A stretch of DNA of 64,000 nt from Escherichia phage Esco_phi_B-01. Of the stretch, positions 6,340-17,582 are shown one piece after another; the stretch's first letter is position 1; every line of letters begins with the position of its first letter. Both the position numbers and the translations under genes were made by a program. The stretch is from the sequence record OP292222.1; one strand, given 5' to 3'. The notes below the pieces were generated by a model that saw only the letters and a program-made list of their open reading frames with translations, was not told where the DNA came from and ran no database searches.

Positions 6340-7299
6340 ATGCTTACAGTAAATAATAATGAATTCATGTTCGAACAGAAATATCGTCCAGGTACTTTAT
6401 CTGAATGTATTCTGCCTGCTCATGATAAAGAAACTCTCCAAGCCATTGTTAATAAGGGCCTAATCCCTAACATTATCCTAGTCTCTGCTTCACCAGGCAC
6501 AGGTAAAACTACCGTGGCTAAAGCATTGTGTGCTGATACAAATTCAGACATGTTGTTTGTTAACGGTTCCGACTGTCGTATTGATTTCGTTCGTAACGAA
6601 CTTACTCGTTTTGCATCTTCTAAATCTATCGAAGGTAAACGTAAGGTAATTGTTATTGACGAATTCGACCGTGCTGGTGTTGCTGAAGCTCAACGCCACC
6701 TTCGTTCATTCTTAGAGGCCTATTCCTCAAACTGTTCTGTAATTATTACAGCAAACAATATTGATGGTATCATCGGTCCACTTCAATCCCGTTGTCGTGT
6801 AATTAAATTTGGTGAAGCCACTCCAGCTGACCAAACAGCCATGATGAAAGAAATGATTCATCGTGCCGTAGCAATTTGTAAAAACGAAAATATCGAAGTC
6901 GAAGACCTTAAAGTTATTGCTGCTTTAGTTAAACAAAACTTCCCTGACTTCCGTAAAACAGTTAACCAACTGGACCGTTATTCCTCAAGTGGTAAAATCG
7001 ATGCAGGCATTTTGAGTATTGTAATGAATACCAATTCGCCTATTGATGAAGTAGTGGCTGCACTGAAAGATAAAAACTTTAAAGAACTCCGTGCATTAGC
7101 TCCACGTCATGTCAATGATTATGCCAACTTTATTATGGCATTGGCTAACGAACTCTATGGTAAATTGCCTGGACCAAGCATTGTTAGAATGTATGAAATC
7201 GTCGGTGAAAATAACCAATACCACGGTATTGCTGCTAACCCAGAAATTCACCTGACTTATCTGTTTATCCAACTTGCTCTGGAGCTCCAATGGCTATAA
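6340..7299 (+). CDS. 44: gp44 clamp loader large subunit (AAA+)
   Basis: SPGTGKTT Walker A, VIDEFDR, SRC motif; 319 aa as in T4. Confidence 0.93.
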   Translation: MLTVNNNEFMFEQKYRPGTLSECILPAHDKETLQAIVNKGLIPNIILVSASPGTGKTTVAKALCADTNSDMLFVNGSDCRIDFVRNELTRFASSKSIEGKRKVIVIDEFDRAGVAEAQRHLRSFLEAYSSNCSVIITANNIDGIIGPLQSRCRVIKFGEATPADQTAMMKEMIHRAVAICKNENIEVEDLKVIAALVKQNFPDFRKTVNQLDRYSSSGKIDAGILSIVMNTNSPIDEVVAALKDKNFKELRALAPRHVNDYANFIMALANELYGKLPGPSIVRMYEIVGENNQYHGIAANPEIHLTYLFIQLALELQWL

Positions 7300-7868: not shown

Positions 7869-8231
7869 ATGATTGAAATTACTCTGAAACAACCTGAAGA
7901 CTTCTTGAAAGTGAAAGAGACCCTAACTCGTATGGGTATCGCTAATAATAAAGAAAAGAAACTATATCAATCCTGTCACATTTTGCAAAAGCAAGGACGG
8001 TATTATATTGTCCACTTTAAAGAGATGTTGCGTATGGATGGCCGCCAGGTAGATATCGATGGTGAAGACTACCAACGCCGTGATTCCATAGCCCAGCTTC
8101 TTAAGGATTGGGGACTTATTGATATTGTAGACGATTCTGAATTGTTCGAAATTACTAATAATTTCCGTGTCATTTCATTTAAACAGAAAAATGACTGGGA
8201 ACTGCTGTCTAAGTATACGATTGGTAATTAA
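7869..8231 (+). CDS. regA: RegA translational repressor
   Basis: near-identical to T4 RegA N-terminus (MIEITLKQPEDFLKVKETLTRMGIANNKEK). Confidence 0.9.
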   Translation: MIEITLKQPEDFLKVKETLTRMGIANNKEKKLYQSCHILQKQGRYYIVHFKEMLRMDGRQVDIDGEDYQRRDSIAQLLKDWGLIDIVDDSELFEITNNFRVISFKQKNDWELLSKYTIGN

Positions 8232-8241
8232 GTTTAAGCAA

Positions 8242-8261
8242 AGGGACTTTGGTCCCTTTTT
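8242..8261 (+). terminator. intrinsic terminator after regA (agggac-tttg-gtccct + TTTTT)
   Basis: GC stem plus T run; followed by ttggagtataat. Confidence 0.55.
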
Positions 8262-8319
8262 GGAGTATAATTATTCATCAACAAACAAAAGACAATCACT
8301 CGTCTATAAAGGAAATGAA

Positions 8320-11031
8320 ATGCAAGAATTCTATTTGACAGTCGAACAAATCGGTGATAATATTCTCGAACGTTACATCGATAAAAATGGTAACGAACGT
8401 AGTCGTGAAGTTCCTTACAAGCCTACAATGTTTATGCATGCCAACCCAGAGCAAGCCGTAAAATATATTGACATCTACGGTAAGGGCTGTGTTAAGAAAG
8501 AATTCGATTCAATGCGCGATGCTTCTCAGTGGATGAAGCGAATGGACGATATGGGTCTCGAAGCCCTTGGTATGGACGACTACAAATTAGCCTATTTGTC
8601 TGATACCTATCGTAAAGAAATCAAGTATGATTCTTCCAAGATTCGTATTGCTAACTTCGACATCGAGGTAACATCTCCTGATGGATTCCCTGAACCTGCC
8701 CAGGCTAAACATCCTATCGATGCCATTACTCACTACGACTCGATTGACGATAAATTCTATGTATTCGACCTTTTAGTTTCACCTTATGGTACGGTCGAAG
8801 AGTGGTCGATTAAAATCGCTGAGAAACTCCAAGACGAAGGTGGTGACGAAGTTCCACAAGAAATCATTGACAAAATCGTTTATCTTCCGTTTAATTCTGA
8901 AGAAGAAATGATGCTTGAGTATCTGAATTTCTGGCAACAGAAAACTCCTGTGATTTTGACTGGATGGAACGTTGAATCATTTGACGTGCCATACGTTTAT
9001 AACCGTCTGAAAAATCTGTTTGGTGAGAACACTGCTAAGCGATTAAGCCCGCATCGTAAGACTCGTGTTAAAGTTATCGAGAATATGTACGGTGTTCGTG
9101 AAATTATTACACTGTTCGGTATTTCTGTTCTGGATTATATCGACCTTTATAAAAAATTCAGCTTTACTAACCAGCCTTCTTATTCTCTGGATTATGTTTC
9201 TGAATATGAATTGAAAGTAGGTAAGTTGAAATATGATGGTCCTATCTCCAAGTTACGTGAGACAAACCACCAACGATATATTTCCTATAACATTATCGAC
9301 GTATATCGTGTTGTGCAGATTGATATGAAACGCCAGTTCATTCTTCTTAGTCTGGACATGGGTTATTATGCTAAGATGCAGATTCAGTCAGTGTTCAGTC
9401 CAATTAAGACTTGGGACGCTATTATCTTTAATAGCCTTAAAGAACAGGGTAAAGTTATTCCTCAGGCCAAATCGCATGCGGTTCAACCTTATCCAGGTGC
9501 TTTCGTTAAGGAACCTATTCCTAACGCGTACAAATATGTAATGAGTTTCGACCTTACATCTCTGTACCCAAGTATCATTCGACAAGTGAATATAAGCCCA
9601 GAGACCATCGCAGGCACATTCGCCAACGCACCGATACATGAATATATTGCCGGAACTGCTCCGCGTCCTAGCGACACCTACAGTTGCTCTCCTAACGGCA
9701 TGATGTACTATAAAGACCGTGATGGTGTGATTCCTACAGAAATCACGAAGGTGTTCTTACAACGTAAAGAACATAAAGGTTATATGCTCGCAGCTCAACG
9801 TAATGGTGAGTTAATTAAAGAAGCATTAGAAAATCCTAATCCATCTGTTGATAGTCCACTGGATATCGATTATCGTTTCGACTTCTCTGACGAAATCAAA
9901 GCCCAGATTAAAAAATTGTCAGCATCTTCTTTAAAAGAAATGTTGTTCAAAGCCGAACGTACTGAAGTCGCAGGTATGACTGCTCAGATTAACCGTAAGT
10001 TGCTTATCAACTCCCTTTATGGTGCACTTGGTAACGTATGGTTCCGTTACTATGACCTCAGGAACGCAACTGCAATCACATTGTTTGGTCAAATGGCCCT
10101 CCAATGGATTGAACGTAAGGTTAACGAATATCTGAATAGCGTATGTAAGACCGAAAACCAGAAGTTCGTGCTCTATGGTGATACCGACTCCATTTATGTT
10201 AAGGCCGATGCAATCATCAATAAAGTAGGCGAAGATAAATTCCGTGATACTAACCACTGGGTTGACTTCTTAGATAAATTTGCACGTGAACGTATGGAAC
10301 CAGCTATTGATGCAGGCTTCCGTGAGATGTGTGAATACATGAACAATAAACAGCACTTGATGTTCATGGACCGAGAAGCTATCGCAGGTCCTCCACTTGG
10401 TTCTAAAGGTCTTGGTGGATTCTGGACAGGCAAGAAACGTTATGCACTGAACGTTTGGGACATGGAAGGTACTCGTTATGCCGAACCACACTTGAAAATC
10501 ATGGGTCTCGAAACTCAGAAATCAAGTACACCTAAAGCGGTTCAGAAAGCACTGAAAGAATGTATCCGTCGTATGCTTCAAGAAGGCGAGGCCTCTTTGC
10601 AAGAGTATTTCAAACAGTTTAATAAGGAATTTAACGAATTAGACTATGTAAGCATTGCTGCAGTATCCAGTGCTAACAACATCGAGAAATATAATGAAGG
10701 TGGTTTCCCTGGTTCTAAATGCCCGTATCACATCAAAGGTTGCTTAGCTTACATGCGTGCTTCTGCTGGTGATTTGACTATGCCTCGTATCGTTGATGGT
10801 GAAAAGGTATATGTACTGCCACTTAAAGAAGGCAACCCGTTCGGTGAAGCTTGTATGGCATGGCCGTCAGGTATTGAACTTCCGATTCAGATTCGTGACC
10901 AAGTCCTCCGTTGGATGGACTACAACGTACTGTTCCAAAAGACCTTTATCAAACCCCTGACCGGTTTTACTGAGTCTGCTAAAATCGACTACGAGAAAAA
11001 AGCAACATTATTTGACATGTTTGACTTTTAA
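8320..11031 (+). CDS. 43: gp43 DNA polymerase (family B)
   Basis: start MQEFYL aligned to T4 MKEFYI; exo motifs (FDIE), pol motifs (SLYPS, YGDTDS); RBS aaaggaaa. Confidence 0.95.
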   Translation: MQEFYLTVEQIGDNILERYIDKNGNERSREVPYKPTMFMHANPEQAVKYIDIYGKGCVKKEFDSMRDASQWMKRMDDMGLEALGMDDYKLAYLSDTYRKEIKYDSSKIRIANFDIEVTSPDGFPEPAQAKHPIDAITHYDSIDDKFYVFDLLVSPYGTVEEWSIKIAEKLQDEGGDEVPQEIIDKIVYLPFNSEEEMMLEYLNFWQQKTPVILTGWNVESFDVPYVYNRLKNLFGENTAKRLSPHRKTRVKVIENMYGVREIITLFGISVLDYIDLYKKFSFTNQPSYSLDYVSEYELKVGKLKYDGPISKLRETNHQRYISYNIIDVYRVVQIDMKRQFILLSLDMGYYAKMQIQSVFSPIKTWDAIIFNSLKEQGKVIPQAKSHAVQPYPGAFVKEPIPNAYKYVMSFDLTSLYPSIIRQVNISPETIAGTFANAPIHEYIAGTAPRPSDTYSCSPNGMMYYKDRDGVIPTEITKVFLQRKEHKGYMLAAQRNGELIKEALENPNPSVDSPLDIDYRFDFSDEIKAQIKKLSASSLKEMLFKAERTEVAGMTAQINRKLLINSLYGALGNVWFRYYDLRNATAITLFGQMALQWIERKVNEYLNSVCKTENQKFVLYGDTDSIYVKADAIINKVGEDKFRDTNHWVDFLDKFARERMEPAIDAGFREMCEYMNNKQHLMFMDREAIAGPPLGSKGLGGFWTGKKRYALNVWDMEGTRYAEPHLKIMGLETQKSSTPKAVQKALKECIRRMLQEGEASLQEYFKQFNKEFNELDYVSIAAVSSANNIEKYNEGGFPGSKCPYHIKGCLAYMRASAGDLTMPRIVDGEKVYVLPLKEGNPFGEACMAWPSGIELPIQIRDQVLRWMDYNVLFQKTFIKPLTGFTESAKIDYEKKATLFDMFDF

Positions 11032-11093: not shown

Positions 11094-11330
11094 ATGGAAG
11101 CTTTAATCGTTAGTGCTGGTGTTTTAGGATTCGGTTCTCTGGCTATTATGTTCATTGGTTACTTTTTACCATGGATTCTAGCTCTTTTGCGAGGCACCCG
11201 TAGCAATGTCGGAATCTTCTTCCTTAATCTCTTGTTAGGATGGACGATGATTGGTTGGGTAGTGGCTTTAATCTGGGCCATCGTCGCTGAACGTAAATCA
11301 AACGCACAAATCATTATCGTTAAACAATGA
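11094..11330 (+). CDS. imm: Imm-like superinfection immunity membrane protein (two TM helices)
   Basis: 78 aa with two hydrophobic helices and conserved GW motifs; sits where T4 has imm, next to gene 43. Confidence 0.5.
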   Translation: MEALIVSAGVLGFGSLAIMFIGYFLPWILALLRGTRSNVGIFFLNLLLGWTMIGWVVALIWAIVAERKSNAQIIIVKQ

Positions 11331-11471: not shown

Positions 11472-11972
11472 ATGAAAAAGTTAATTATCGCAATGAGTAT
11501 GCTCCTATCAGGTTGCGCGGTCCAATACGGTGATGCAGTTTCGGCTGATGAAGTTGGTAAAGCTCGTATTGCAGCTGAACAGAAACAATTCGACGGCGAA
11601 ATGAAATTCCGTGCCGGTTCTGGACTTGTGTATACCCGAGCTAATAATCAATGTGGTAATAACTGTGCAAAATATGCTCAAAGGGAAATCGAATTCCAAC
11701 GTGAACAAGAGTCTAAGCGTGAAGAGGTACTAGCCAAACACCAGGCAGAAATGAAGCGCCAAGATGATTTGTACAAAAAGCAGAAACTGTATTCTATGTG
11801 TGTAAACCATATCAATCTACAGATTTCTGTCCATGAGGCTCGTTATTACGAAATGCTCGAAACCGAGAGCTTCGATAAAGCTCGTGATTATAAGAAACAA
11901 ATCAACAAGCTTAAGACCAAAGTGCCTGCTGCAGTAGAACAGTGCATGGAATACGGTAAAGATAAGATTTAA
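11472..11972 (+). CDS. putative lipoprotein (166 aa)
   Basis: signal peptide with lipobox LLSGC; RBS gagga. Confidence 0.6.
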   Translation: MKKLIIAMSMLLSGCAVQYGDAVSADEVGKARIAAEQKQFDGEMKFRAGSGLVYTRANNQCGNNCAKYAQREIEFQREQESKREEVLAKHQAEMKRQDDLYKKQKLYSMCVNHINLQISVHEARYYEMLETESFDKARDYKKQINKLKTKVPAAVEQCMEYGKDKI

Positions 11973-12032: not shown

Positions 12033-13706
12033 ATGAAAAAGGTTGTTATTTTAGGCGCAGGTCTTGGCTCACGGTTGTATCCAATTACTAACGAAATCCC
12101 GAAGGTATTGGTTAACTATAAACAACATACGGTATTAAAGCATTTGTATGATTTGTATAGTAACCAATCAGATGAAATTATTCTGGTTATTCACAGCAAA
12201 TTTAACGACCTCGTTAAAGGCTATATTAAATCCATTAACATGATTACTGGTGATAAGCCTAAATTCACTATTCGTAACGTTGATGTTGCTAATGGTTCAG
12301 CTCATGCAATCGATTGCATTGCCGAAGATATCATTGGCCATAATGTCCTGTTTAACTGGTGTGACATCATTCCTATCGGTCATAAAGTTGAATGGGGTAA
12401 CGACTACTGTTATACCTATGGAACTGACTGTCGTTTTACATTTGAAGAACCGTACTTACGTGAAATTGGTACTGGTGGCGGTGTAGTTGGTTTGTATCAG
12501 GTAGCCAATTGGACAGGTTTCGACCGTTCTAATTATGGTGAAGACCTTGCTGATAACCTGGATTCAATGGTCTATTTGACCGAACGTAAACTGGATTTTG
12601 TAGTTGATGTCGGTGACAAATTGAAACTGGCTAAGGCCCATGAAGAATCTGAAATTAACCGTGAATTTAATAAATTAGAATTCACCGAGAATCTGGCTAT
12701 TAAAGTACCAACTAACGAATTAGGTAAAGAAATTCAATCTAAAGAAATCAATTGGTATAATTCTATTGATTCTGAATTCGTTCCTAGCATTGTAGACTTT
12801 TCTCCAGGCGAATTCATTAAAATGGAACGTATCTTTGGTCGAACCATGGCAGATGCCTACCGGTTTATGTCCAAAGAAACTAAAGTCCTCATGGTTTATA
12901 AGGTCATTAGTGCATTACGTTCATTTGGTGGAACTATTGATAACCCGTCCGATGAGCAATGGTATTCCGATGTTAAGAAAGAAGTATTGGACAAGGTCCT
13001 TATTCGTAATGCTTCTATTGCTGGATTGATTGAAGGCTTTGCTCCACAGGGCATTACCCATGTTAACGATTTCAAAGTAGGCGACCCTGAAAAACTTCTT
13101 CGCCATGCACTAGAAATTCTGTCTGAACATAAAGAACCGTACCAACTTATTCATGGCGACCCGCACTACAGTAATATTATGCTGTCGGACGAAGGTGATA
13201 TTAAAATCATCGACCCACGTGGTTATTTCGGTAATAGTTCTAAAGGCCCTGCGATTTATGATGAAGCTAAGGTGCTTTATTCTATCGATGGCTATGACAA
13301 ATTTAACTCAGACCCTCTATGGGGCGGATTAACTCGTAACGGAACTCGTGTATTCGTTGATATCGAAAAGATTATGCCTTTAGACGATATCCCTATGTGC
13401 ACATTTAAGCACAAGCTCTGGATTGCTGTTATTTGGATGGCTCTGGCAGGTTACTTTAAGAATAACCCTCTGAAAGCTCTAGGTGCTTATTATAACGGTT
13501 TGTACCAACTGAGTGTGCTGCTGAAGCGGCATCCTCGTAAGCGTAAGCTTATTACGGGTGAATTTGTCGATGAAGTTCGTGACCCTATTACGGCTCAAAT
13601 TATTACTCGTTGTCCTGATAAGTGGGTTTTGCTTGACCAGGAAACTGGTGTAAAATATAAACCTACAGGTTCTACTGAACTCCACAAACAATGGAAGAAA
13701 ATTTAA
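12033..13706 (+). CDS. bifunctional sugar-1-phosphate nucleotidyltransferase / APH-like sugar kinase fusion
   Basis: N-terminal ILGAGLGSRLYPIT...PKVL (RmlA/GlmU-type NTP-transferase signature); C-terminal HGDPHYSNIML...IIDPRGYFG (aminoglycoside/choline kinase fold Brenner and DxxG motifs); RBS gagga. Confidence 0.75.
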   Translation: MKKVVILGAGLGSRLYPITNEIPKVLVNYKQHTVLKHLYDLYSNQSDEIILVIHSKFNDLVKGYIKSINMITGDKPKFTIRNVDVANGSAHAIDCIAEDIIGHNVLFNWCDIIPIGHKVEWGNDYCYTYGTDCRFTFEEPYLREIGTGGGVVGLYQVANWTGFDRSNYGEDLADNLDSMVYLTERKLDFVVDVGDKLKLAKAHEESEINREFNKLEFTENLAIKVPTNELGKEIQSKEINWYNSIDSEFVPSIVDFSPGEFIKMERIFGRTMADAYRFMSKETKVLMVYKVISALRSFGGTIDNPSDEQWYSDVKKEVLDKVLIRNASIAGLIEGFAPQGITHVNDFKVGDPEKLLRHALEILSEHKEPYQLIHGDPHYSNIMLSDEGDIKIIDPRGYFGNSSKGPAIYDEAKVLYSIDGYDKFNSDPLWGGLTRNGTRVFVDIEKIMPLDDIPMCTFKHKLWIAVIWMALAGYFKNNPLKALGAYYNGLYQLSVLLKRHPRKRKLITGEFVDEVRDPITAQIITRCPDKWVLLDQETGVKYKPTGSTELHKQWKKI

Positions 13707-14089
13707 TGTCGTATCGAGTAGAAAATAAGCCACATTTATGTTTTGATATCGATAACACAATCACGATTTGGAACCATGACCGTGATTATGAGAACTTTAA
13801 ACCGGACACCGAAATGGTGTCCATGATTAATAAGCTTTATGATGAAGGGTACGAGATTACATTGTTCACCGCGCGTGGCATGACTTCATGTGGCCCAGGT
13901 CGAATCTTGGTTGAAGTAGTTCCTGCCTTGGTTAAGAACCTTGAAAAAATTGGATTGAAATATCACAATTTGCTTACACATAAGCCGAGTTATACTTTTA
14001 TCATCGATGACCGAGCAATCCGTCCTGACCACTTTAAAGAAATGGTTCGTGAAGGAACTCTTGATGGTTATAAGGCCTATCATCCATGA
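13706..14089 (+). CDS. small HAD-superfamily phosphatase
   Basis: motif I FDIDNTIT near the N-terminus, TAR motif II; TAATG coupling to the upstream gene. Confidence 0.6.
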   Translation: MSYRVENKPHLCFDIDNTITIWNHDRDYENFKPDTEMVSMINKLYDEGYEITLFTARGMTSCGPGRILVEVVPALVKNLEKIGLKYHNLLTHKPSYTFIIDDRAIRPDHFKEMVREGTLDGYKAYHP

Positions 14090-14622
14090 ATCCAAAAATC
14101 ATTGTTATAGACGGCCCGGATAATTCCGGGAAGTCCACTTTAATTAAAAATCTGTTATCCAATAAGAAATACCGCCTTATTGATTTTCCTAAAAAGATTA
14201 ATGGCAAGTGTATTTCATTAGGAACTGATAACGATAAGGCTTTAGTTGAAACTCTGTATAAGTTTTTAGACCCTAATTTCGTTTATATCCTTGACCGTGG
14301 TTATCCAAGTAATATTGTTTACTCAGGATTCCTTCGTGGTGAAATGGACCCTTATGTAGAACTGGAAGATTGGAAAGGGTTTAAATCTGAATTTAACGTT
14401 ATCGAGGTTATTTTAACTCGCAACCCATTAGACGAAGACTTCGAAGACGACCTTATTAAATTAACCGAAGATGAGTTCAACCTAACTATCCGGCAATACG
14501 AAACATGTTTTGAAAACGTGTTTAAAATCTTAAATCATGACGGCCATAATAATTTGCTTAATGTTGATATGGTAGAATTAAAACGTCTGAACGAATATAT
14601 TGAAAATAAGGTGAATAAATGA
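14086..14622 (+). CDS. thymidylate-kinase-like P-loop nucleotide kinase
   Basis: IVIDGPDNSGKST P-loop and DRGYPSNIVYSG (TMK DR(Y/F)..S..AYQ-like motif); ATGA coupling. Confidence 0.6.
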   Translation: MNPKIIVIDGPDNSGKSTLIKNLLSNKKYRLIDFPKKINGKCISLGTDNDKALVETLYKFLDPNFVYILDRGYPSNIVYSGFLRGEMDPYVELEDWKGFKSEFNVIEVILTRNPLDEDFEDDLIKLTEDEFNLTIRQYETCFENVFKILNHDGHNNLLNVDMVELKRLNEYIENKVNK

Positions 14623-15317
14623 AACACATTACCGCTGTTAGTTTTGAAAATGCATTTAAACAAATGAACGAAGAAATCCTGGAAGCTCCACAGTTTGCAG
14701 TTGATTCTCGTATCGGACGTTGTTATGAAATTGGTTCTGCTTCGGTAGAAGTACTGGATGCAAGCACCTATAAATTCACCGACCCACGTATTAATCGTAT
14801 TAGTTATGAATATGCCGAATCCTTTTGGAAATTTATGATTTCTGGTGGTACTGACGCTGCCGAAGCATTTAAGGAATACCCTAATGTTGCTAAGTTCATT
14901 GATAAGCCGAAAAGTGACGTATTGCCTGCAAACTTCAACACTTTCTATGGACCTCGAATTGTGGCCCAACTCCCAGCCCTACTTAAAGAGCTTAAAGAAA
15001 AGGCTAACTCGCGAAGAGTTGTGTTCCAGATTCTCCAAGAACAAGACCAAGCCCTCCTTGATTCTGACGAATCCTTAGAATATCCGTGTACCGATTCGGT
15101 AACGTATTATATTCGTGACGGACGTTTGTATGCACACACCCATATGCGTTCACAGAACTGCGCTGTTGTTATGCAGCTGGATTTCTATCTGCAGGGTAAA
15201 CTGATGGCATTTATTGCTGAACAGTGTGGTGTCGGTTTAGGTACATATTCCCACACCATGGTAAGTGCACACGTGTTTGAACGCGATTTTGACTACGTCC
15301 GAGGTTTCCTGAAATGA
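14619..15317 (+). CDS. 42: dCMP hydroxymethylase (thymidylate-synthase fold)
   Basis: catalytic-Cys region YPCTDSV and MRSQN... align with T4 gp42 FMCTNTV / MRSND; position as in T4. Confidence 0.8.
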   Translation: MKHITAVSFENAFKQMNEEILEAPQFAVDSRIGRCYEIGSASVEVLDASTYKFTDPRINRISYEYAESFWKFMISGGTDAAEAFKEYPNVAKFIDKPKSDVLPANFNTFYGPRIVAQLPALLKELKEKANSRRVVFQILQEQDQALLDSDESLEYPCTDSVTYYIRDGRLYAHTHMRSQNCAVVMQLDFYLQGKLMAFIAEQCGVGLGTYSHTMVSAHVFERDFDYVRGFLK

Positions 15318-16207
15318 GTTTGTTTATCGTTCCTATTTTCAGTATGCGTAGTTACGAAACAGGTGAATATGCCGTCCTTAAGGACGGCAATTTTCAACTC
15401 CATTTAAATCGTGCTCGTCCAGGTGATTATCTGGCTTATCCTAGAAATTCGAGCGATATCAAAGAATGCATTGAATTATTCCCGGAACTGAATTTCGTAC
15501 CACTTTGGTATAAAGAAAATGCTTATGAAACCCGTAAACATTTCTGGTCTGAAAATGAGTTTGTAGTCGATTCACTAATCGAATACTACGATTGCTCAGG
15601 ACTGGTAACTGATATCACCGGTTATGATGGTGCTCACACTGTACAATTCAACTTTAATATCACAATGGACCCTGAAGTTCCTCGTTATTATATCGACGAG
15701 TTCATTGATATTGATGTGGCTTCAGTTGAACGTTCACTTTATACTACAGTCCTGAATCAATGCCAGAAAGACGTCCTGGTGTCACGAGGTGCATCCTCTG
15801 ATAAGATTTTTGTAGACCAAAAGGTAATTAATCCTGCAGTAATTGAGCGTTACTCTGAAGGTCTAGCGCCTATTAAAATTGATGGTATTTTCCATCCATT
15901 CCGTATTTCGGATAAGTGCTATCAATTCGAAAGAGTTGTAGACCAAGCTGCCGCTGAAGGTGCTCGTCTTTATATCACTGACCCGAATGATTCATTTAAG
16001 CGTGAAGACTATCGTCCTGATGTAGAGATTATTAAATTCAAACCGAGTAAGGTTGAATATTATCAAATTCTGAAATCAAGACCACATATCATTTATCATG
16101 AGAACCCAGGTTTAGTATTCCATCCTGGTCTGGCTGAATTCATTTATTTCGGTGCCAATATTCATTCTGAATACGAAATGCCACGTTATGAGGACGTAGT
16201 ATGCTAG
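15314..16207 (+). CDS. hypothetical protein in the beta-glucosyltransferase position; candidate hmC glycosyltransferase
   Basis: 297 aa, coupled to gene 42 (ATGA), no recognisable similarity to T4 beta-gt; function inferred from position and operon context only. Confidence 0.45.
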   Translation: MSLFIVPIFSMRSYETGEYAVLKDGNFQLHLNRARPGDYLAYPRNSSDIKECIELFPELNFVPLWYKENAYETRKHFWSENEFVVDSLIEYYDCSGLVTDITGYDGAHTVQFNFNITMDPEVPRYYIDEFIDIDVASVERSLYTTVLNQCQKDVLVSRGASSDKIFVDQKVINPAVIERYSEGLAPIKIDGIFHPFRISDKCYQFERVVDQAAAEGARLYITDPNDSFKREDYRPDVEIIKFKPSKVEYYQILKSRPHIIYHENPGLVFHPGLAEFIYFGANIHSEYEMPRYEDVVC

Positions 16208-16332
16208 GTCCTCTATTGCTTTTTATAGGTTTGTTATTATTCTCTTTCGGAGCCTTGCTATTACTAGTGTGGCTCGAGAAACGAGAAGTTCGGAAGATAG
16301 TCGATAAGGCTATCAACCGAGGAATTAAGTAA
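16201..16332 (+). CDS. small membrane peptide (43 aa, one TM plus basic tail)
   Basis: ATG overlapping the upstream stop; hydrophobic core LLLFIGLLLFSFGALLLLVWL. Confidence 0.35.
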   Translation: MLGPLLLFIGLLLFSFGALLLLVWLEKREVRKIVDKAINRGIK

Positions 16333-16409: not shown

Positions 16410-17582
16410 ATGTCTGATTTAAAATCCCGTTTGATTAAAGCTTCTACTTCTAAAATGACTGCCGACCTGACCAAATCTAAATTGTTTAATGGTCGTGACG
16501 AAGTTCCTACTCGTATTCCTATGCTTAATATTGCATTGGGTGGTGCGTTGAATGCAGGCTTACAATCAGGTTTGACAATCTTTGCTGCACCGTCTAAACA
16601 CTTTAAAACGTTGTTTGGATTAACTATGGTTGCGGCATATATGAAGAAATATCCAGACGCAATTTGCTTGTTCTATGACTCTGAATTCGGTGCTTCAGAA
16701 TCTTATTTCCGTTCAATGGGTGTTGACCTGGAACGTGTGGTTCATACGCCAATCCAGTCAGTCGAACAACTGAAGGTTGACATGACCAACCAATTAGAAG
16801 AAATTACTCGTGGCGAAAAGGTTATTATCTTTATCGACTCCATCGGTAACACTGCTTCTAAGAAAGAAACCGAAGATGCTTTGAACGAGAAAGTTGTAGG
16901 TGATATGACTCGTGCTAAGTCTCTGAAATCTCTGTTCCGTATCGTAACACCTTATCTGACTATCAAGGATATTCCTTGCGTAGCAATTAACCATACGGCT
17001 ATGGAAATTGGTGGAATGTATCCTAAAGAGATTATGGGTGGCGGTACTGGTATTCTGTACTCTGCTTCTACCGTATTCTTTATCTCTAAACGTCAGGTTA
17101 AAGATGGTACCGAGCTCACTGGTTATGACTTCACCCTGAAGGCCGAAAAATCTCGTACTGTTAAAGAGAAATCAACGTTCCCAATTACTGTGAACTTTGA
17201 AGGTGGTATCGACCCATTTAGTGGTCTGCTCGAAATGGCTACTGATATTGGCTTTGTTGTGAAACCTAAAGCTGGTTGGTATAATCGTGCATTCCTTGAC
17301 GAAACCACGGGTGAAATGGTTCAAGAAGAAAAATCATGGCGTGCTAAAGCTACCGATTGTGTCGAGTTCTGGGGACCGCTGTTTAAACATGCTCCATTCC
17401 GTGAAGCAATCGAGAATAAGTATAAGCTCGGTGCAATTAATTCTATTAAAGAAGTCGATGATGCGGTGAACGACCTTATTAACTCTCGTGTCTCTAAGAA
17501 CGTTGCAGTTAAATTGAGTGGCGACACTCAAAGCGCAGCTGATATCGAAAACGATTTAGAAGAGATGGATTTAGATGACTGA
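16410..17582 (+). CDS. uvsX: UvsX recombinase (RecA-like)
   Basis: N-terminus MSDLKSRLIKASTSK identical to T4 UvsX; conserved throughout. Confidence 0.95.
   Translation: MSDLKSRLIKASTSKMTADLTKSKLFNGRDEVPTRIPMLNIALGGALNAGLQSGLTIFAAPSKHFKTLFGLTMVAAYMKKYPDAICLFYDSEFGASESYFRSMGVDLERVVHTPIQSVEQLKVDMTNQLEEITRGEKVIIFIDSIGNTASKKETEDALNEKVVGDMTRAKSLKSLFRIVTPYLTIKDIPCVAINHTAMEIGGMYPKEIMGGGTGILYSASTVFFISKRQVKDGTELTGYDFTLKAEKSRTVKEKSTFPITVNFEGGIDPFSGLLEMATDIGFVVKPKAGWYNRAFLDETTGEMVQEEKSWRAKATDCVEFWGPLFKHAPFREAIENKYKLGAINSIKEVDDAVNDLINSRVSKNVAVKLSGDTQSAADIENDLEEMDLDD

Follow-up and report, generated by a model that had tools for sequence, protein, structure and literature searches.

Arabinosyl-5-hydroxycytosine is a recently recognized hypermodification of phage DNA, and papers citing Mahler et al. 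2025 state that it guards against type II restriction, the Brig1 glycosylase and type I CRISPR-Cas. In RB69 DNA, the arabinose is joined to C5 of the base directly via an oxygen, a finding that corrected the earlier ‘arabinosyl-hmC’ (hydroxymethylcytosine) assignment, and RB69 gp48 and DLP3 gp80 have been shown to make 5-hydroxy-dCMP from dCMP with the help of a flavin (Lee et al., NAR 2026; PMC13326640). The enzyme that adds the first sugar controls the whole modification. Lee et al. hypothesize that RB69 gp46:47 (‘arabinosyltransferase 1’) and DLP3 gp79 attach this first arabinose, and they report conserved synteny with the single arabinosyl-glycosyltransferase (ara-GT) of the mono-arabinosylated Shewanella phage Thanatos (PMC13326640). 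Here, we focus on a related open reading frame (ORF) of Escherichia phage Esco_phi_B-01, found in a 64,000-nucleotide stretch of sequence record OP292222.1 (the whole of which we call the window). This ORF, the target, lies directly downstream of a gene of the ThyA superfamily (Table 1), and we consider it likely to encode a GT-B-fold transferase for the base-proximal arabinose.

The family has been described under several names. According to Lee et al., RB69 ORFs 046 and 047 are one gene divided by a sequencing error; Dhakaviruses are part of their synteny analysis, where function is inferred by comparative genomics only (PMC13326640). Brandt et al. singled out the family of Thanatos TH1_063 as a glycosyltransferase (GT) candidate (PMC12838424). 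Before that, the transferase candidate of Thomas et al. 2018 was RB69 ORF003c, and their paper makes no mention of ORF046/047 (PMC6024577); a 2021 survey listed RB69p047 without a function.

Over the 4.5 kb around the target, identity reaches 98.6% with Escherichia phages JS98 and UP19 and 98.5% with JS10, all Dhakaviruses, and the target protein has a 100% identical counterpart in JS10, annotated as ‘hypothetical protein’. It falls into phrog_3891 (‘unknown function’; E=3e-159 over residues 1-296). Its residues 1-179 share 70% identity with RB69p047 and its residues 184-296 share 65% with RB69p046. Identity to Thanatos TH1_063 is 52% over the full length (E=3e-99), and the comparison with the DLP3 type, made with Acinetobacter phage proteins that do not include DLP3 gp79 itself, gives about 50%. 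Homologues with 27-100% identity occur in 352 phage records and in 117 clusters of the protein database, and belong to T4-like phages of Escherichia, Klebsiella, Yersinia, Serratia, Proteus, Pseudomonas and Acinetobacter; weaker ones are found in Sinorhizobium phage phiM9 and Serratia phage PS2. The phrog_3891-type GT family is small: an exhaustive profile search over 1.84 billion representative proteins returned 239 clusters, 181 of them with E<=1e-10. Judged by sequence, the target is the Dhakavirus copy of the RB69 gp46:47/DLP3-type/TH1_063 family and as such is already known. An initial annotation made from the letters of the window had suggested a possibly new DNA glycosyltransferase family; this novelty does not hold, given phrog_3891 and the candidate status of the family in two papers (PMC12838424, PMC13326640).

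The target sits where T4 encodes its beta-glucosyltransferase (beta-gt), as the initial annotation had claimed and as the comparison of gene orders bears out. In the window, the DNA polymerase gene (8167-11031) lies upstream of the module and is followed, further on, by the ThyA-like gene, the target and uvsX (beginning at 16410), while the T4 order is 43, imm.1, imm, 42, b-gt, segA, uvsX. The target’s ATG (15314-15316) overlaps the TGA (15315-15317) of the ThyA-like gene in an ATGA junction, an arrangement that would couple its translation to that of the upstream gene. Coupling to ‘gene 42’ had indeed been claimed: the overlap is present, but the upstream gene is no true gene 42. More broadly, the genes of Table 1, from the NTP-transferase/kinase gene to the target, form a chain with a small ORF at 16201-16332 in which neighbours share 4 to 16 nt. 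A scan for promoters and terminators between 11 and 17 kb gave background level only.

Table 1. Coordinates of the modification module in the window, with the evidence for each feature
Feature	Position	Strand	Evidence or description
NTP-transferase (N-terminal) + APH-like kinase (C-terminal), RB69 gp52:53 homologue, 567 aa	12003..13706	+	Pfam and comparison with RB69
HAD-type sugar-phosphate phosphatase, 132 aa, RB69 gp51 homologue	13691..14089	+	61% identity to gp51; TIGR01689 E=1e-14
TMK-like (thymidylate kinase-like) P-loop nucleotide kinase, 178 aa, RB69 gp45 homologue	14086..14622	+	phrog_761 ‘thymidylate kinase’ E=2e-39; 38% identity to gp45
ThyA-superfamily enzyme, 232 aa, homologue of the flavin-dependent 5-hydroxy-dCMP synthase RB69 gp48	14619..15317	+	Sequence and PDB matches
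GAGG Shine-Dalgarno-like motif (15301-15304), 9-nt spacer, ATGA overlap (15314-15317)	15301..15317	+	Sequence inspection
Target ORF, 297 aa	15314..16207	+	Predicted GT-B fold glycosyltransferase, putative first (base-proximal) arabinosyltransferase on 5-hydroxycytosine

The identity of the acceptor base can be approached through the ThyA-like gene. Its product belongs to the ThyA superfamily (Pfam E=4e-13) and is 80% identical to RB69 gp48 versus 25% to T4 gp42. Among its PDB matches, 9iqu, 9iqc and 9ir2, new phage entries labelled ‘thymidylate synthase’, reach E=2e-125, whereas T4 gp42 (1b49) reaches 1.5e-4. The protein carries HMRSQN, with an Asn, where T4 gp42 has NMRSND, with an Asp, and the same Asn is found in RB69 gp48, Thanatos TH1_062, a jumbo-phage homologue and phiM9 td.2. 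An Asn in place of Asp169 of E. coli ThyA (D169N) has been proposed as diagnostic of 5-hydroxy-dCMP (5hodCMP) synthases (PMC13326640). Because the upstream enzyme is 80% identical to a proven 5hodCMP synthase and has the D169N change, the acceptor base here is almost certainly 5-hydroxycytosine (5hoC) and not hmC. The initial annotation had assumed hmC, which an RB69 gp48-type enzyme with D169N speaks against. An assignment of the ThyA-like gene as a dCMP hydroxymethylase (gene 42) was considered and rejected, on its low identity to T4 gp42 and on the Asn that replaces Asp.

In public records of JS98, JS10, IME08 and relatives, the target is labelled ‘hypothetical protein’ (in few, ‘RNA polymerase binding protein’), the homologue of the 5hodCMP synthase is labelled ‘thymidylate synthase’ or ‘dCMP hydroxymethylase’, and ‘phosphoheptose isomerase’ is the name given to the HAD phosphatase. 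Such labels seem to be out of date or incorrect, and a practical outcome of the analysis is a corrected annotation for the JS98/JS10-type gene and its ThyA-like neighbour.

A structural model of the target was obtained with AlphaFold2 from a 62-sequence family alignment. The model has a predicted local distance difference test score (pLDDT) of 94.9 and a predicted template modelling score (pTM) of 0.89, contains no disordered segments and shows two halves of alternating strands and helices (approximately residues 1-181 and 192-297). The high pLDDT, together with homologues in hundreds of phage records and more than a hundred database clusters, establishes the target as a real gene. A Foldseek search against the PDB gave 113 matches at E<=1e-3, and the top 50 are all GT-B glycosyltransferases or GT-B-fold UDP-GlcNAc 2-epimerases. 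By template modelling (TM) score, the leading transferases are MshA (3c4q, 0.61), BshA (6n1x, 0.59), HepE (0.56) and a mycobacterial mannosyltransferase (7qsg, 0.56), with WsaF and GtfA chimeras as further GT-B matches in the top 50. The lowest E-values belong to the non-hydrolysing UDP-GlcNAc 2-epimerases 7vza and 7vz6 (E=3e-6; TM 0.45-0.53). The entry with the highest TM-score, 3c4q, is also the match listed for RB69 gp46:47 in PMC13326640. In the viral structures of BFVD, the family’s own members come first and viral glycosyltransferases directly after them. Based on the model, we are confident that the fold is of GT-B type. Fold prediction (GT-A or GT-B?) with a structural search was the check proposed in the initial annotation, and its outcome is GT-B, not GT-A.

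The conserved residues are laid out in a similar way in both halves. In the N-terminal half, the conserved polar residues are M11-R12-S13, K23-D24-G25-N26, Y66, N69, R74, D100, N113, N115 and N148; in the C-terminal half, the conserved positions are F193, P195-F196-R197, S199, D200, Y203, T222-D223-P224-N225, K246 and H270-P271-G272. Invariant among them are R197, D200, T222-D223-P224-N225, K246 and H270-P-G, E275 is conserved in at least 70% of sequences, and all lie at strand ends or helix starts. Conserved polar residues at the C-terminal ends of strands and in the loops that follow, in both halves, are the layout expected of an active site in a cleft. The N-terminal half, the putative acceptor side, shows unusually high conservation, which fits a single conserved acceptor.

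Altogether, these observations lead us to propose a mechanism. The ThyA-like enzyme would hydroxylate dCMP to 5-hydroxy-dCMP, and the TMK-like kinase and general kinases would raise it to the triphosphate for incorporation in phage DNA. In a parallel branch, the NTP-transferase/kinase and the HAD phosphatase would turn host arabinose-5-phosphate into UDP-D-arabinofuranose (UDP-Araf). The target would hold the UDP-sugar mainly in its C-terminal Rossmann-like half (F193, P195-F196-R197, S199, D200 and Y203, with T222-D223-P224-N225, K246, H270-P-G and E275 as further candidates) and the 5-hydroxycytosine in its N-terminal half (M11-R12-S13, K23-D24-G25-N26, Y66, R74, D100, N113 and N115), although the roles of individual cleft residues are only putative. 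The first arabinosyl would then be moved onto the 5-OH, giving 5-O-arabinosyl-cytosine. We infer the transfer itself, the donor and DNA (not free nucleotide) as the acceptor, and the whole, that is, a GT-B transferase adding the first arabinosyl in this manner, is in our judgement a likely account of the target. The initial annotation had named this ORF the best transferase candidate, a choice supported by the GT-B fold, by neighbours for NDP-sugar supply and base modification, and by homology to the proposed arabinosyltransferase 1. Its functional guess (a glycosyltransferase for modified cytosine) was largely right, with the chemistry misread.

Several points weigh against this account. From an experimental perspective, the literature covered (which excludes Mahler et al. 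2025 and He et al. 2026) holds no direct demonstration of transfer by a member of the family. Single DLP3 GTs (gp76, gp77 and gp79) supplied with UDP-Araf or UDP-arabinopyranose (UDP-Arap) and 5hoC-DNA gave no arabinosylation, and Lee et al. could not tell whether the first sugar is placed on DNA or on a mononucleotide (PMC13326640). Moreover, purified TH1_063 formed UDP-xylose from UTP and xylose-1-P in the work of Brandt et al. (PMC12838424). TH1_063 also showed no transfer to plain DNA, dCMP, dCTP or cytosine (PMC12838424), a negative that is uninformative because these acceptors lack the 5-OH. From a computational perspective, the target has no Pfam or NCBIfam match and gets no functional name from PHROGs; none of the 62 family members matches a Pfam glycosyltransferase or epimerase model at E<=1, a lenient Pfam scan of them giving scattered chance matches only, and sequence and profile searches of the PDB with the family matched no solved structure. 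With glycosyltransferase models of Pfam and NCBIfam matched by none of the members, the GT assignment rests on the predicted fold, and Foldseek E-values fail to separate transferases from GT-B-fold epimerases. Finally, the target is strongly acidic (isoelectric point, pI, 4.9; net charge -17; family median pI 5.35), and T4 beta-gt has a pI of 9.05.

Independent support for the proposed account comes from distant relatives of the target. An MRS(Q/E)N-type ThyA-like gene followed by the GT recurs in RB69, Thanatos, a 383-kb jumbo contig and rhizobiophage phiM9, and in the first three of these the GT has a TMK-like kinase as a neighbour. In the jumbo contig (L005; GCA_040384225.1, T4-like), a 39%-identical GT lies between an MRSQN ThyA-like gene and the TMK-like kinase, with no sugar-activation genes nearby. 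In phiM9, a member of another phage family, three genes overlap mutually: td.2 (MRSQN), the GT homologue (profile E=1e-28) and a P-loop gene with the motif EGLDRSGKDS. The P-loop gene has a weak hhalign match to the kinase family (38%) and is not counted as a confirmed kinase. The most distant member (L006; Logan contig SRR22071707_3375) stands with a MazG-like gene, a TMK-like kinase, a U32-like protein and a GT47-like protein, and its locus has no recognizable ThyA homologue. An unannotated 271-aa neighbour there was compared as a possible divergent ThyA and rejected. Thus, the conserved partners of the GT are enzymes of modified-nucleotide synthesis and phosphorylation, while the sugar genes vary. 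This pattern fits the view of Lee et al. that 5hoC is a platform for different sugars.

Two genes at these distant loci deserve a comment of their own. The jumbo contig has a flavodoxin-like gene at 6426-6929 (Flavodoxin_2-type, FMN reductase-like), two genes upstream of the D169N ThyA homologue; its position suggests a dedicated flavin reductase partner, which fits the flavin dependence of the 5hodCMP synthases. At 9049-10122 of the Logan contig, the U32-family protein is 51% identical to RB69 gp50 (6493-7662 of L001, the segment 20000-36000 of RB69). U32 proteins such as RlhA, TrhP and UbiU/V hydroxylate their substrates independently of oxygen, and the product of RlhA is 5-hydroxycytidine in rRNA. 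In this context, gp50-type proteins might offer another way to 5-hydroxycytosine, one that works anaerobically. For gp50, Lee et al. give no more than ‘sugar or heterocycle reductase’ (PMC13326640).

The family is also found in fusion proteins. In at least nine cluster representatives (P0203, P0208, P0215, P0217, P0221, P0229, P0244, P0248 and P0251), the GT is joined to a domain of about 180 aa with an EGFDRIGKD P-loop, C-terminal in eight of them and N-terminal in one. In hhalign, the domain matches TMK-like kinases of the window type (96% probability, E=4e-9), and fusion P0203 matches Pfam Thymidylate_kin (E=1e-4); phmmer, run with the window neighbours against the fusion proteins, returned nothing, and the link to the window kinase is seen by hhalign only. 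A further eight representatives (P0131, P0143, P0146, P0153, P0170, P0174, P0190 and P0212) carry an N-terminal HAD-like domain, identified from motifs and a weak Pfam match, whose relation to the window HAD protein is not detectable (hhalign probability 0.3%). As Rosetta-stone links, these fusions tie the GT to the nucleotide branch of the pathway as well as to its sugar branch, and the recurrent fusion of the GT to a TMK-like kinase is a new observation.

In combination with the negative result of Lee et al. on 5hoC-DNA, the kinase-GT fusions keep a nucleotide-level acceptor possible. Here, the first sugar would be placed on free 5-hydroxy-dCMP, -dCDP or -dCTP before replication, the TMK-like kinase would handle the product and the polymerase would incorporate it; only later sugars, in other phages, would go onto DNA. 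We hold this to be rather unlikely, though clearly the strongest competitor. The fusions to the kinase family occur in both domain orders, and the conserved core around the GT consists of nucleotide-level enzymes (ThyA-like and TMK-like kinase, with MazG-like in L006). In addition, the inactivity of single GTs on 5hoC-DNA left the acceptor level undecided in the study of Lee et al. (PMC13326640), and the acidity of the target favours a nucleotide acceptor, if weakly. Masking 5-hydroxycytosine before incorporation would make biological sense, since the free form in DNA is an oxidative lesion that is mutagenic and that E. coli removes with Nth and Nei.

On the other hand, adjacency is not decisive: T4 beta-gt adjoins gene 42, which encodes a nucleotide-level enzyme, yet it works on DNA. 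The kinase-GT fusion may reflect only co-assembly in a complex for dNTP synthesis and replication, and the later sugars are added at the DNA level. The charge argument is also weak, as uvsX in this phage has a pI of 5.4 and RB69 gp3, of a family proposed to act on DNA, has a pI of 6.3. If true, transfer to the nucleotide would be the first case of a DNA base glycosylated before replication, and it would account both for the inactivity of single GTs on 5hoC-DNA and for the extra nucleotide kinase in these phages. The fusions thus sharpen the question of DNA or nucleotide as the acceptor into a testable form.

A much less probable alternative takes the target as a UDP-pentose pyrophosphorylase, as Brandt et al. 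concluded for TH1_063, and leaves the transfer to another protein. Its basis is biochemical: when His-tagged TH1_063 was incubated with UTP, xylose-1-P and pyrophosphatase, a product formed whose mass and tandem mass spectrometry (MS/MS) pattern were those of UDP-xylose, and none formed in the no-enzyme control or with a TH1_060 preparation (PMC12838424). However, the fold is GT-B, and sugar-1-P nucleotidylyltransferases account for none of the top 50 PDB fold matches. The target has no match to the NTP_transferase Pfam models (PF00483, PF12804) and lacks a G-x-G-x-R-L motif, while the 567-aa ORF of the same module has both the NTP_transferase domain and the motif GAGLGSRL; for the counterpart of that ORF in HY126, AfhE, Lee et al. 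relay a UDP-arabinose pyrophosphorylase activity (PMC13326640). Furthermore, mono-arabinosylating phages (e.g. Thanatos) would be left without any transferase. The UDP-xylose result can possibly be reconciled with a transferase: a retaining, GT4-like GT-B enzyme could form UDP-xylose by reverse transfer from xylose-1-P and UDP, the latter from UTP breakdown.

The least probable alternative, a GT-B-fold non-transferase such as a UDP-sugar 2-epimerase-like enzyme that remodels a UDP-pentose (arabinose is the C2 epimer of ribose), draws on the lowest Foldseek E-values, those of the epimerases 7vza and 7vz6, and on the similar top match, 1o6c, that Lee et al. give for the analogous RL38J1_215 (PMC13326640), but is very unlikely given that true transferases score higher TM than epimerases, that no family member matches Pfam Epimerase_2, that no epimerase is needed on the route from arabinose-5-P, going by the AfhE/AfhF work that PMC13326640 cites, that the GT family also occurs in modules without nearby sugar-activation genes (the jumbo contig, phiM9), and that mono-arabinosylating phages would again lack a transferase.

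With a GT-B transferase for the first arabinose as the preferred account, the target can be compared with described enzymes. The nearest in position is T4 beta-gt, a member of the GT-B superfamily. The two share the slot between a ThyA-family base-modifying gene and uvsX as well as the GT-B class (for the target, by prediction), and presumably a similar logic, in which an NDP-sugar is used on a hydroxyl at C5 of cytosine. The initial annotation had called the target non-homologous to T4 beta-gt: this stands at the sequence and profile level, since the 62-sequence family profile shows no similarity to it (hhalign probability 0.2%), but the fold class is common to both. They differ in size (351 aa for T4 beta-gt, 297 aa for the target) and charge. 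In addition, the acceptor hydroxyl would sit directly on the ring in the case of the target and is on a hydroxymethyl group for T4 beta-gt, and the sugar would be a phage-made pentose where T4 beta-gt uses host UDP-glucose.

With the retaining GT-B enzymes MshA and BshA, and with other GT-B enzymes such as HepE, the target shares the two-Rossmann architecture with a cleft (TM 0.56-0.61 for MshA, BshA and HepE), whereas sequence identity is 9-12% and the target is about 70-100 residues shorter. The family has no match to Pfam Glycos_transf_1 or Glyco_trans_4. The E-x7-E motif was not identified in the target, where H270-P-G-x-x-E275 is a possible analogue only. The base-proximal arabinose is alpha-linked according to Lee et al. 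(PMC13326640), which would fit a retaining mechanism if the donor were alpha-linked UDP-D-Araf. UDP-GlcNAc 2-epimerases (7vza, 1f6d, 3ot5) resemble the target in their compact GT-B-like fold and differ in sequence (9-14% identity).

RB69 gp3 and DLP3 gp76-gp77, the second and third arabinosyltransferases, share with the target the pathway, the phage-encoded GT-B type and the proposed use of UDP-Araf. RB69 gp3, however, belongs to another family, GT4/T4 alpha-gt-like by hidden Markov model (HMM) comparison (PMC6024577), and DLP3 gp76 and gp77 in vitro added sugar to already arabinosylated DNA (PMC13326640). In the database search, the gp3-type second transferase occurs in 212 records, confined to Mosigvirus (at least 95% identity) and to Acinetobacter phages and one Tegunavirus (below 60%); the range between 60% and 95%, where a Dhakavirus copy would fall, is empty. 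This absence refers to the window and the database identity bands, the whole JS98 genome not having been scanned for glycosyltransferases. The larger record number of the target family compared with that of gp3 (352 and 212) fits a core first transferase with gp3-type enzymes as add-ons. As there is no gp3-type second transferase, the DNA of this phage is predicted to be mainly mono-arabinosylated, and the prediction extends to JS98-like phages, which would carry mono-arabinosylated 5hoC. Mono-arabinosylated Thanatos has a TH1_063-type protein as its single ara-GT (PMC13326640). A first-sugar enzyme would also serve as a labelling tool for 5-hydroxycytosine, an oxidative DNA lesion.

The remaining genes of the module would supply the sugar donor and the nucleotide. 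The 567-aa ORF has Pfam matches to NTP_transferase (PF00483, E=3e-8) and APH (E=1e-5), and is 41-44% identical to RB69 gp52 and gp53. Its true start is probably near 12033, because the RB69 match begins at 12033 and the alignment to phrog_4098 begins at residue 11. The model TIGR01689 that the phosphatase matches is a capsule biosynthesis phosphatase. Work on the HY126 counterparts, as Lee et al. report it citing He et al. 2026, has AfhE and AfhF together leading from arabinose-5-phosphate to UDP-arabinofuranose: AfhF, the analogue of RB69 gp51, converts Araf-1,5-bisphosphate to Araf-1-P, the step also proposed for the HAD phosphatase of this phage, and AfhE is the analogue of RB69 gp52:53 (PMC13326640). 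Homologues of RB69 gp55 (arabinose-5-P isomerase), gp50 (U32-like), gp49 and gp3 were not found in the window, and arabinose-5-P is presumably supplied here by the host enzymes KdsD/GutQ.

The RB69 cluster and that of the present phage have in common a GT directly downstream of a D169N ThyA homologue and genes for UDP-arabinose supply (NTP-transferase/kinase and HAD phosphatase) in the same module. They differ in the TMK-like kinase, which is located downstream of the GT in RB69 and upstream of the ThyA gene here, so that the GT is followed by the kinase in RB69 and by a 43-aa membrane ORF in this phage. Also, gp46:47 is split in two ORFs in the RB69 reference record, whereas the gene is one intact ORF here.

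The 43-aa ORF (MLGPLLLFIGLLLFSFGALLLLVWLEKREVRKIVDKAINRGIK; 16201-16332, + strand) has one hydrophobic helix and shares its first 7 nt (ATGCTAG), start codon included, with the end of the target. A family search with it gave no match. It may be co-translated with the modification module, with uncertain membership in it. At the other end, two genes (11094-11330 and 11472-11972, + strand) lie between the DNA polymerase and the module: one is a homologue of the superinfection-immunity protein Imm (Pfam E=5e-18), and the other, a 166-aa ORF with no family match, has an N-terminus that resembles a lipoprotein signal (MKKLIIAMSMLLSGC).

Finally, one database entry seen in these comparisons is composite in appearance. 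The deposit named ‘phage Ec2-ASingh’ (PQ561406.1, PQ561417.1) has one Dhakavirus-like contig, 98.6% identical to the present module, and another that encodes a 98.9% homologue of RB69 gp3, which is typical of Mosigvirus; two phages have probably been mixed under this name.

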